DNA of 22,032 bases from Escherichia coli (lineage in GTDB: Bacteria; Pseudomonadota; Gammaproteobacteria; Enterobacterales; Enterobacteriaceae), in assembly GCF_003334255.1 (NCBI RefSeq), contig NZ_QOWU01000068.1; one strand, 5' to 3'. Below the pieces are notes generated by a model. It ran no database searches. It had not been told where the DNA came from and saw only the letters and a program-made list of their open reading frames with translations. This document shows positions 3,394-21,938 of this stretch, in pieces; the first letter of the stretch is position 1; the number at the start of each line of letters is the position of its first letter. Position numbers and translations under genes: made by a program.

Positions 3394-4512
3394 ATGAATA
3401 ACGAGGAAACATTTTACCAGGCCATGCGGCGTCAGGGCGTTACCCGGCGCAGCTTTCTCAAATATTGTAGTCTGGCTGCCACGTCGCTGGGATTAGGCGC
3501 GGGAATGGCACCAAAGATTGCCTGGGCGCTGGAGAACAAACCGCGCATTCCGGTGGTATGGATCCACGGTCTGGAATGCACCTGCTGTACCGAATCTTTT
3601 ATCCGCTCCGCTCACCCACTGGCGAAGGACGTCATCCTTTCCCTGATTTCCCTCGATTACGACGATACTTTGATGGCTGCCGCCGGAACCCAGGCGGAAG
3701 AAGTCTTTGAAGACATCATCACGCAATACAATGGCAAATATATCCTCGCAGTAGAAGGTAATCCGCCGCTGGGCGAGCAGGGGATGTTCTGTATCAGCAG
3801 CGGTCGACCGTTTATTGAGAAACTCAAACGTGCCGCTGCCGGAGCCAGCGCGATTATCGCCTGGGGAACCTGCGCGTCCTGGGGCTGCGTGCAGGCCGCG
3901 CGACCCAATCCGACGCAGGCAACGCCTATCGACAAAGTCATCACCGACAAACCCATTATCAAAGTACCTGGCTGCCCGCCGATCCCGGATGTGATGAGCG
4001 CCATCATTACTTACATGGTGACCTTTGATCGCTTGCCAGATGTCGACAGAATGGGCCGTCCGCTGATGTTCTATGGTCAGCGAATCCACGATAAATGCTA
4101 TCGCCGCGCCCACTTCGACGCCGGAGAGTTCGTCCAGAGTTGGGATGATGACGCTGCCCGCAAAGGTTACTGCCTGTACAAAATGGGCTGCAAAGGGCCT
4201 ACCACCTATAACGCCTGTTCCTCCACACGCTGGAATGATGGCGTTTCTTTCCCAATCCAGTCTGGTCACGGCTGCCTGGGCTGTGCGGAAAATGGTTTCT
4301 GGGATCGCGGTTCGTTCTACAGCCGCGTGGTCGATATTCCGCAAATGGGTACTCATTCCACCGCCGATACCGTCGGTTTAACCGCGCTTGGCGTGGTGGC
4401 AGCGGCTGTTGGTGTGCACGCAGTCGCCAGCGCCGTTGACCAGCGCAGACGTCATAACCAGCAACCTACAGAAACCGAACATCAGCCAGGCAATGAGGAT
4501 AAACAGGCATGA
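3394..4512 (+). CDS. hyaA: Hydrogenase-1 small subunit (NiFe hydrogenase, Tat signal)
   Basis: 372 aa from ATG 3394 (the ORF track starts at an upstream in-frame GTG). Twin-arginine motif RRSFLK, Cys clusters for FeS centres, C-terminal hydrophobic anchor. Matches E. coli HyaA from memory. Confidence 0.95.
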
Positions 4513-20693: not shown

Positions 20694-20999
20694 TTAGCGT
20701 GTAGTGGACGTGGTGGTTGAGGTGTTATGAGAACCGCCATCGCCACTGTCATTTGCTGCAACAACTGCCAACGTCGCCACACCAACAGCCGTTGCCACAC
20801 CGACAACTGTCGCCGTGCCGACAGCGCCAGCAGCCACGCCACCAGTGGTAGTAGCAGTCGTGGTTGCGCCGGTAGTGGTCGTTGTGGTGCCAGTAGTACC
20901 CGTCGTTGCCTCGGTCCCGTTTGTTGCTTCAGGGGCAGCAAACGCAGCTGGCGTCGTCAACATGAAGGCCATAAGGATTGCAGAAAGCTTGTGTTTCAT
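20694..20999 (-). CDS. gfcA: Threonine-rich group-4 capsule protein (YjbE-like)
   Basis: 101 aa from ATG at 20997-20999 (MKHKLSAILMAFMLTTPAAFA signal peptide), followed by a Thr/Gly/Ala/Val low-complexity tract. The ORF track extends 6 codons upstream. Confidence 0.88.
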   Translation of the reverse strand: MKHKLSAILMAFMLTTPAAFAAPEATNGTEATTGTTGTTTTTTGATTTATTTGGVAAGAVGTATVVGVATAVGVATLAVVAANDSGDGGSHNTSTTTSTTR

Positions 21000-21440
21000 A
21001 ACTTTTCCTTTATTCATCGCATGGACAATACGTACGCTTGAGATCAGGATTGTCTACTTTGAGTATAACATCCTTGTGAAATCTCCCTTTCCTCATACCG
21101 CTTGCACTATATACTGCGGGTAGGAAAGGCGCGCAGAGGGAAATATAAGATTGTTAACTATCCCCCTCTGGAAATACGACTTGTGAGCATAAGATAAATC
21201 TTAGCAAAATACAAATTAAAGATAAGGAAATTGTTACGAAAGCTATTAATTATTGTTGGTAATATAGTTTCAAGTGGTACTATAACTGGCTGTTAAATGG
21301 CATTTATAACTATTAGGTGCAGAGATATTCGCTTAAATGGATTAGTTTCTTTGTGGAAAAGTAACTGATGTTATAATGTATGATGTTGACTATTGCACTA
21401 TTCCAATAAAACCAGTCAGCTTTAAACAAGCAGCGTCATA
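21000..21440 (-). promoter_or_regulatory. gfc operon promoter / upstream regulatory region (AT-rich), also the cspH 3' flank
   Basis: About 440 bp of markedly AT-rich non-coding DNA upstream of gfcA with no IS sequence in it; contains inverted repeats CAGAGGG...CCCTCTG (about 21150-21187). Confidence 0.4.
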
Positions 21441-21653
21441 TTAAGAGAGATAAACATTTGCCGCTGTTGGTCCTCGCAGGCCATTTACGCGGCAAAATTC
21501 CACACGTAATCCTGGTATAAGCACTTCTGCGTCGCGGGGAGTGAATGCGGAAATATGGACCTGAACTTCTTTACGACCGTCGGAGGGGATAATGAATCCT
21601 TTGCCGCTTTTGCGATCAAAGGTTTTGACAATTCCTGTCATTTTACGGGACAA
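21441..21653 (-). CDS. cspH: Cold-shock-like protein CspH
   Basis: 70-aa cold-shock-domain protein ([26 protein letters not shown]...). The first codon in this sequence is TTG (plus-strand caa at 21651-21653), with SD AAGGA 6 nt upstream. Confidence 0.88.
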
Positions 21654-21938
21654 ACAAATTCCTTACTGAAAATACTGCGCTGCACTATACGGGGTTAATA
21701 AAATAAAGCCAGCGATATTTAAGACCGCCGGACGGCTAAAATAAAATTTGCTTAATCTCAATTATCATGCGTTAATAGCTGCGTCGGTTTGAAAGACAGA
21801 CAGCATACAAAGTAGTTTACTAAAGCAGTTCTCATTATCAGGCATTATCCCCTTCTTTTGAGTCTCTCTCCTGAACACTAAGTAGTTTCTGTATTAAAGC
21901 CCTGTTTGCCGAAAGGCCCAAAATGAAGGAAGTAAAAT

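Follow-up and report, generated by a model that had tools for sequence, protein, structure and literature searches.

Simple-sequence contingency loci, as found in Haemophilus and Neisseria, are phase-variable genes that carry perfect short tandem repeats. Thr/Ser/Pro-rich disordered linkers and O-glycosylated carrier regions occur in secreted bacterial proteins, and PEP-CTERM proteins of exopolysaccharide loci have a C-terminal sorting domain made up, in this order, of a signature motif, a transmembrane helix and a few clustered basic residues at the very end of the chain. The exopolysaccharide production protein YjbE (PF11106), which is encoded by the first gene of yjbEFGH, resembles GfcA in that its gene lies directly upstream of a gene for a lipoprotein of the YjbF/GfcB family; both proteins have a signal peptide, a Gly/Ala-rich region, a Gly-rich hydrophobic core, a motif of the GGGDG(S/A)N type and a poly-Thr tail that ends in Arg. 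Compared with the YjbE type, GfcA has a Thr/Gly tract in its N-terminal part as an extra, and the Thr run of its tail is shorter (3 residues versus a median of 7).

EPEC deleted for gfcA lacks the O-antigen (group 4) capsule, which returns when gfcA by itself is supplied on a plasmid (PMC3853201); additionally, all seven genes of the operon are cited as being needed for the capsule (PMC4368438, PMC8592465). GfcA has been described as an inner-membrane or secreted protein that is 30 % Thr (PMC8592465) and as natively unstructured, in a study that places the N-terminal barrel of GfcD in the FapF family (PMC8346858). A LolA-like fold has been reported for GfcB (PMC8592465). In a published model, GfcD exports anchored polysaccharide by way of a lateral gate (PMC11494523), and Larson et al. 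put forward the speculation that GfcA might receive O-antigen as a modification and leave through GfcD (PMC8592465). In a different context, overexpressed YmcD lowered intracellular D-alanine, with significance reported only for AlaE and YciC (PMC10299036). Both the topology of GfcA and its possible modification bear on how the O-antigen capsule is anchored.

The window considered here is a stretch of 22,032 nucleotides of Escherichia coli DNA (contig NZ_QOWU01000068.1), and the feature under study occupies positions 20694..20999 of its minus strand, as 101 codons plus a stop. Translation from the ATG at 20999 gives the 101-residue protein MKHKLSAILMAFMLTTPAAFAAPEATNGTEATTGTTGTTTTTTGATTTATTTGGVAAGAVGTATVVGVATAVGVATLAVVAANDSGDGGSHNTSTTTSTTR. 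The feature is the known gene gfcA (ymcD), whose product is already named for its threonine richness; in every locus fetched, RefSeq annotates this CDS of 306 nt under the name 'threonine-rich inner membrane protein GfcA', and K-12 MG1655 and many other strains show 100 % DNA identity over 601 nt spanning gfcA. The identification of the gene as GfcA in the earlier note is confirmed by this 100 % identity to annotated gfcA and by the operon position next to cspH. gfcA opens the operon for the group 4 capsule, gfcABCDE-etp-etk, whose ORFs occupy 13285 to 20999 of the minus strand. The minus-strand ORFs downstream of gfcA have 214, 248, 698, 386, 152 and 726 codons, and the equivalent ORFs in RefSeq loci with the same order are named gfcB, gfcC, gfcD, gfcE, etp and etk, with cspH upstream. 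The next gene, gfcB (19943..20587, minus strand), encodes the YjbF-family lipoprotein, a family for which homologues match PF11102, and served as the synteny anchor. Because a Shine-Dalgarno-like AAGGA (21006..21010, minus strand) precedes the ATG at 20999 by 6 nt, the start that yields the 101-aa protein is preferred over the ATG at 21017 that would yield 107 aa.

The K-12 locus has the same DNA over the 601 nt and the same operon position, but it carries an IS1 upstream of gfcA. In K-12-type records the match is broken by 777 extra bases annotated as IS1 (a span of 1,378 versus 601), and the junction lies approximately 33 bp upstream of the gfcA start codon. Since the window is free of this upstream IS1, it represents the intact-promoter form, as in most non-K-12 strains. 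A scan for promoters and terminators around gfcA found nothing, a hairpin between gfcA and gfcB was not significant (z = -1.18), and Rfam gave no RNA family in gfcA. At the protein level, NCBIfam had no family for GfcA, GfcB, GfcC or GfcD, a search of PDB sequences with GfcA gave no meaningful match, and an exact look-up in a collection of 15 billion proteins found neither the 101-aa nor the 107-aa protein. Protein searches with GfcA returned 31 matches by a word-indexed method and 14 by an exhaustive one, most of them frameshifted or truncated assembly variants; its distant relatives were missed by these searches and were found instead through synteny with GfcB.

The main reading, to which we assign a probability of about 0.6, is that GfcA is a four-module family protein in which a Thr/Gly spacer is joined to a membrane-held core, and whose length of 101 aa is effectively fixed in E. 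coli. The chain begins MKHKLSAILMAFMLTTPAAFA, followed across the putative cleavage point by APEATNGTEATTGTTGTT. Codons 1-21 (20937..20999, minus strand) encode the signal-peptide-like N-terminus MKHKLSAILMAFMLTTPAAFA, which has an AFA/AP motif and is without a lipobox Cys; it would be a Sec-type signal peptide cleaved between AFA and AP, and a signal-peptide-like N-terminus is kept across the 57 syntenic homologues described below. Codons 22-52 (20844..20936, minus strand) encode the Thr/Gly/Ala spacer APEATNGTEATTGTTGTTTTTTGATTTATTT, the length-variable module, which may serve as a disordered, flexible periplasmic stretch whose sequence is only loosely constrained, and which may have been enlarged in Escherichia by old, now degenerate, duplications of 21 nt (7 codons). 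Codons 53-82 (20754..20843, minus strand) encode the Gly/Ala/Val hydrophobic core GGVAAGAVGTATVVGVATAVGVATLAVVAA, a candidate membrane helix; these approximately 30 residues most likely form one helix that would hold the protein in the membrane. Codons 83-101 (20697..20753, minus strand) encode the polar tail NDSGDGGSHNTSTTTSTTR, with an acidic/Gly motif, a Thr run and a terminal Arg, and this module would correspond to a conserved pattern of the form (N/G)DxGDG...poly-Thr-Arg. On this reading, the first, third and fourth modules define the GfcA/YjbE family, whose members are encoded immediately upstream of each gfcB/yjbF homologue examined. The peptide quoted in the earlier note corresponds to GfcA residues 32-83, so that what was called there a tract takes in two modules with different conservation, the N-terminal Thr/Gly spacer and the Gly/Ala/Val core, and is without the family-defining poly-Thr tail (20697-20753).

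In the mature part of GfcA, i.e., the 80 residues after the 21-residue N-terminus, T, G, A and V account for 65 residues (81 %; T 28, A 15, G 13, V 9), which bears out the claim that nearly everything after the signal peptide belongs to these four. The DNA had been described as a run of imperfect 3- to 9-nt repeats, and this description did not hold. No 9-mer occurs twice in the 183-nt low-complexity part of gfcA, where perfect tandem repeats reach no more than 10 nt (2 x 5). Tandem Repeats Finder reports one weak array only (period 21, 2.3 copies, 74 % matches, score 54), a degenerate 21-nt (7-codon) tandem array at 20850..20897 on the minus strand, and within the hydrophobic core there is an imperfect direct repeat of three 18-nt units with a six-residue period, GxATxV (20772..20825, minus strand; 83 % and 72 % identity). 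The Thr codons of gfcA are almost evenly mixed (ACC 9, ACG 8, ACT 7, ACA 4). Measured against 3,000 synonymous recodings, repetitiveness is equal to or slightly below expectation (P(null<=obs) 0.09-0.6), and relative to a mononucleotide shuffle the tract is in excess only for the reuse of 6-mers (P = 0.002). Since the repeat statistics match the synonymous-recoding null, the low complexity of gfcA resides at the level of amino acids and codon classes, not in DNA repeats.

Depending on the query, gfcA is carried by 3,605-3,674 of 5,426 complete E. coli genomes. Its length was inspected in three evenly spaced samples of the ranking (57, 58 and 59 full-length rows, with some overlap among the lists) and in two 'best' lists baited with divergent alleles (the best 60 rows of each); across these overlapping samples of complete E. 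coli genomes, the span of the record equalled that of the query in 294 of 294 full-length rows. Partial matches to gfcA represent IS3 or IS1 insertions, or deletions. When a rare draft-genome allele with a 15-nt in-frame deletion (P0002) was used as bait, eight complete genomes, of the approximately 3,600 carriers, ranked above the standard-length alleles. Two genomes have the 15-nt deletion (291 nt, 96 aa), five have an 18-nt insertion (324 nt, 107 aa; confirmed in two loci that were retrieved, with three more listed at the same span and a near-identical score), and one has a 21-nt insertion (327 nt, 108 aa). The 18-nt insertion is carried by one ETEC isolate and four CDC strains, of which two bear the label O169:H41. 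Every E. coli length variant preserves the reading frame and maps to the N-terminal Thr/Gly part. The insertions of 18 and 21 nt perfectly duplicate, in tandem, the unit ACTACTGGCACCACAAC(GACC) on which the degenerate 21-nt array is built, so that the array at 20850..20897 is the substrate of these rare duplications (L075/L076 and L077), and the 15-nt deletion falls between ACCAC direct repeats. In all five length-variant loci that were fetched, gfcB and gfcC are annotated as intact; the natural variants of 96, 107 and 108 aa could be used as ready-made spacer-length mutants. As a separate observation, the lineage with the 15-nt deletion also has an IS5 upstream, and three draft contigs add a 2.65-kb deletion that reaches into gfcD.

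A query limited to the 133-nt tract distributed its matches over identity bands of 2,530, 1,024, 44, 6 and 1, and the lowest two bands (6 + 1) were unchanged when a different standard-length bait was used; these two bands place large indels at approximately 0.2 % of gfcA carriers. Taken over the identity bands, indels of any size, small ones of 3-9 nt included, affect at most 51 of 3,595 carriers (1.4 %). The expectation that the copy number of the repeat may differ between strains is correct only marginally, in that eight of about 3,600 genomes vary, whereas no departure from the standard length occurs among the 294 full-length rows inspected; likewise, slippage-type duplications and a deletion do exist, as had been anticipated for a tract prone to slipped-strand change, but they are rare, at about 0.2 % of carriers. 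Invariance of the tract across strains, which the earlier note had set against its own proposal, is nearly but not strictly what E. coli presents. The mixture of synonymous Thr, Gly and Ala codons would leave the DNA almost devoid of perfect repeats, and given this near-absence, slipped-strand or microhomology events would be rare single in-frame steps (-15, +18 and +21 nt). The finding is ordinary and already known, in that both gfcA and its Thr richness have been named and length variation among strains is close to absent.

Among selected divergent E. coli alleles, the proportion of segregating sites is 20 % in the N tract, 16 % in the core, 3.5 % in the tail and 1.6 % in the signal peptide, with the tail showing only two such sites. 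Changes among the divergent alleles are mostly synonymous, and T<->A replacements recur. In the gfcA frame, 69 substitutions are synonymous versus 34 that are non-synonymous, and the indels are all multiples of 3, a pattern indicating that the reading frame of gfcA is, by comparison of its alleles, under selection.

For an assessment beyond E. coli, a synteny set of 61 gfcB-related loci was assembled from contigs representing one genome per species, 58 of which have enough upstream sequence. In 57 of these 58 loci an automatic filter recognised a matching small ORF that precedes the gfcB/yjbF homologue by 100-290 nt, and in the 58th (L041) the upstream ORF is present with a degenerate tail. 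The layout common to the 57 consists of a signal peptide, a Gly/Ala-rich N region of 9-40 aa, a hydrophobic core made of Gly, Ala, Val, Ile and Leu, an acidic-glycine motif (GGGDG(S/A)N or NDSGDGGS) and a poly-Thr tail of almost uniform length (15-22 aa) with a median Thr run of 7, the final residue being R in 52 of 57. The median length in the family is 82 aa, and E. coli GfcA, at 101 aa, is the longest, equalled only by a cryptic Escherichia clade (L013), which keeps 101 aa at approximately 12 % residue divergence. The Thr/Gly stretch at residues ~27-52 accounts for the roughly 19 residues by which GfcA exceeds its relatives: the N region measures 9-37 aa in other genera versus 40 aa in E. 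coli, and the long, Thr-rich N form is found only in Escherichia, two Erwinia/Pantoea relatives having shorter Thr runs. In E. albertii, another member of the genus, alleles measure 94, 95 and 96 aa and differ by indels that lie in the N tract, apart from one in the tail; all of the E. coli indels and most of those in E. albertii fall in the N-terminal spacer. Judged from these alignments, the hallmark of the family is the hydrophobic core together with the poly-Thr-Arg tail, and not the Thr/Gly tract that is specific to Escherichia. Of 26 aligned syntenic relatives, 16 match the Pfam family PF11106 YjbE (best E-value 5.6e-30). GfcA gave no match to PF11106 even at E <= 10 and no other Pfam match, and hhalign between the GfcA-type and YjbE-type alignments paired residues 1-25 only (97.7 % probability), with the low-complexity remainder unscored. 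Since PF11106 is silent and hhalign covers only the signal peptide, the relation between GfcA and YjbE rests on synteny and architecture, which is the basis used in the literature as well (PMC8592465, PMC11494523).

As for placement, the GfcA core has a Kyte-Doolittle mean of 2.16 over 19 residues, which is well above the usual transmembrane thresholds, and its best 19-residue window sums to +0.98 kcal/mol on the Hessa scale, which is borderline. AF2 predicts a helix at residues 61-83 and no secondary structure in the flanks, at an overall pLDDT of 48, i.e., with low confidence; the Thr/Gly spacer is without secondary structure in this model (pLDDT ~40). With no K or R in the N region, an acidic flank after the core and a lone terminal Arg, the charges provide a weak topology signal. 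The favoured interpretation of these predictions is that GfcA is an exported, membrane-held small protein, whose placement is a predicted one.

Several other explanations for the tract and for the protein must be weighed against the four-module reading, beginning with those that concern length. The tract could be a slippage-prone simple repeat whose copy number readily varies between strains or within populations, in the manner of contingency loci. gfcA does share with such loci a low-complexity coding tract, a role as a surface-polysaccharide gene and rare slippage-type duplications and deletions, and there are three independent in-frame length changes with slippage signatures in E. coli in addition to the E. 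albertii alleles of 94, 95 and 96 aa. However, the codons are mixed and the longest perfect tandem is 10 nt, so that perfect multi-copy repeats are lacking; the changes are all in frame and only some eight of about 3,600 genomes (~0.2 %) differ in length; the complete genomes inspected showed no frameshifting on/off variants; and the locus is inactivated instead by IS insertion and deletion. Lacking both perfect multi-copy repeats and frequent or frameshifting polymorphism, gfcA is not a contingency locus, and that explanation, which we consider extremely improbable, is largely refuted. Another possibility, that the Thr/Gly tract is functionless filler, a neutral insertion whose constant length reflects a low mutation rate, would fit a tract that is missing or much shorter in most homologues, that is, among the selected divergent alleles, the most polymorphic part of the gene (20 % segregating sites, with frequent T<->A), and whose 96-, 107- and 108-aa variants adjoin gfcB and gfcC genes annotated as intact. 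Against it, the cryptic Escherichia clade holds to 101 aa despite its ~12 % residue divergence, and the Thr/Gly/Ala composition is preserved even where residues change; neutral filler is considered improbable. It should be added that a purely passive spacer role likewise fails to explain why that clade has kept 101 aa.

The remaining alternatives concern where GfcA goes and what it carries. It may be that GfcA is not an inner-membrane protein and is instead an exported, disordered substrate, with its core chaperoned in the periplasm (e.g., by a LolA-like GfcB) and then inserted into GfcD or secreted through it. The borderline insertion energy and the weak positive-inside signal are consistent with this, as are the 'natively unstructured' GfcA and FapF-like N-terminal barrel of GfcD in the literature (PMC8346858) and the strict co-occurrence of the GfcA-type ORF with gfcB/yjbF. 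The high Kyte-Doolittle mean (2.16) and the helix predicted by AF2 argue for retention in the membrane, and the effect of YmcD on D-alanine weakly suggests action at the inner membrane (PMC10299036); on balance, the substrate explanation is unlikely. A related proposal is that GfcA is a carrier or anchor glycoprotein, whose Thr-rich N tract and/or tail would be O-linked to O-antigen; GfcB and GfcC would deliver the conjugate to the laterally gated barrel of GfcD, and it would end up on display as the capsule attached to the surface. In its favour are the published suggestion itself (PMC8592465), the requirement of gfcA for capsule formation (PMC3853201), the conservation of the poly-Thr tail in 57 homologues wherever gfcB/yjbF occurs, and the modelling of GfcD as an exporter of anchored polysaccharide (PMC11494523) alongside a LolA-like GfcB. 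However, the literature found reports no glycan, oligosaccharyltransferase or modified GfcA, and a core acting as a stop-transfer helix in the inner membrane would leave the tail on the cytoplasmic side. Moreover, most members of the family lack the N tract, so that a general acceptor could be sought in the tail at most. The gfcABCDE-etp-etk operon contains no apparent transferase gene, and no cognate sortase-like enzyme or glycosyltransferase was identified for GfcA. Comparison with PEP-CTERM and O-glycosylated secreted proteins points in both directions: GfcA resembles them in its signal peptide, Thr-rich region, C-terminal hydrophobic segment and linkage to polysaccharide export, but it differs from PEP-CTERM proteins in having no PEP motif and no basic cluster directly after the core, where an acidic tail of 19 residues, rich in Thr, follows instead. 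That the poly-Thr-Arg tail is conserved is compatible with a putative carrier role, which it does not demonstrate, and the glycoprotein proposal is decidedly unlikely. Generalized to the family, it would make GfcA/YjbE a protein anchor or carrier, the Gly-rich core being a membrane anchor that the LolA-like GfcB passes to the laterally open barrel of GfcD and the tail (along with the tract in Escherichia) being the site of polymer attachment or a spacer. This too we hold to be improbable; if true, it would explain how the cell retains its group 4 capsule without relying on lipid A-core. The reading that GfcA is a four-module protein with a spacer and a membrane-held core is the one retained here.

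Finally, the low-complexity composition has consequences for the other reading frames. The long ORFs that had been noted on the opposite strand and in other frames are present, and they are also uninterrupted in other alleles, which is a side effect of the composition. An antisense ORF at 20727..21041 (plus strand, 104 aa) is Arg/Cys-rich and spurious, and substitutions among alleles are mostly non-synonymous in its frame. Another antisense ORF, at 20815..21123 (plus strand, 102 aa), is rich in Val, Pro and Ala and gives 66 synonymous to 37 non-synonymous substitutions versus 69 to 34 for gfcA; since it shares its wobble positions with gfcA, these counts do not discriminate against that frame. 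The 20815..21123 ORF was considered as a gene and judged to be a by-product of composition, the independent support (ribosome-binding site, signal peptide, synteny and complementation) belonging to gfcA. On the same strand as gfcA, a +1-frame ORF of 90 aa lies at 20669..20941 (minus strand), and frameshifted 109-aa 'GfcA' variants in the database (P0008, P0011 and P0028) read into it.

Across the 57 syntenic GfcA/YjbE-type homologues found at gfcB/yjbF homologue loci (L013-L073), the modules common to the family are the C-terminal tail and the hydrophobic core, not the Thr/Gly tract. Both the tail and the Gly-rich core are kept at every locus in the alignments. The tail (window 20697-20753) consists of an acidic/Gly motif and a poly-Thr run, and ends in a terminal Arg in 52 of the 57. 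In the window, the core is made up of three imperfect 18-nt repeats (20772-20825), each encoding a six-residue, GxATxV-like unit, and it is because of this construction that Gly recurs at GfcA residues 61, 67 and 73.

Within Escherichia coli, decay of the gfcA locus proceeds via insertion sequence (IS) elements and deletions, not via slippage of the tract. Approximately 1,750 of 5,426 complete genomes (about a third) lack a gfcA match, even at low stringency, and the locus is frequently damaged among carriers (L003, L004, L008-L010 and L079). The types of damage include an IS3 within gfcA, an IS1-associated gfcA-gfcB deletion, a 2.65-kb deletion running from gfcA into gfcD, and a gfcA-gfcC deletion. 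In K-12-type genomes, an IS1 and a 9-bp duplication, together 777 extra bases, are inserted approximately 33 bp ahead of the start codon of gfcA. This insertion is missing from the window (corresponding site at about 21032-21033), whose cspH-gfcA intergenic region is therefore uninterrupted, as in most non-K-12 strains.

As for length variants, the +18-nt (L075 and L076) and +21-nt (L077) alleles of gfcA now contain perfect two-copy tandem repeats of 18 or 21 nt, so that slippage is to be expected more readily in these lineages than in the standard allele. Additionally, many ‘GfcA’ variants from metagenomes and assemblies (database matches P0008, P0011 and P0023-P0028) shift into an open +1 frame (window 20669-20941, minus strand) and terminate at 109 aa, ending ...QRLLVWRRWQLLQQMTVAMAVLITPQPPRPLHANTALTRRN. 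Frameshifts into this frame were absent from the complete-genome rows inspected, and the variants may represent sequencing or assembly errors in a low-complexity region rather than real alleles.

In the gfcA-gfcB intergenic region, a minus-strand hairpin (CCCGGU...ACCGGG; 20625-20660) precedes a U7 run, with a gap of approximately 17 nt between them. No terminator was scored at 20625-20660, and the hairpin fold was not significant (z = -1.18); the hairpin might modulate read-through into gfcB from the highly expressed gfcA. On the other side of gfcA, Rfam returned a sub-threshold match to the cspA thermoregulator (21404-21700, minus strand; 22.8 bits, E = 0.0017, where the gathering score is 78), which spans the cspH 5' region and the start of its coding sequence.

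With regard to function, a D-alanine export screen yielded five selected clones, one of which overexpressed YmcD (GfcA); its overexpression reduced the intracellular D-alanine level, with significance reported by the authors for AlaE and YciC only (PMC10299036). This result hints at an action of overproduced YmcD on the inner membrane, or at a disturbance of that membrane by it.
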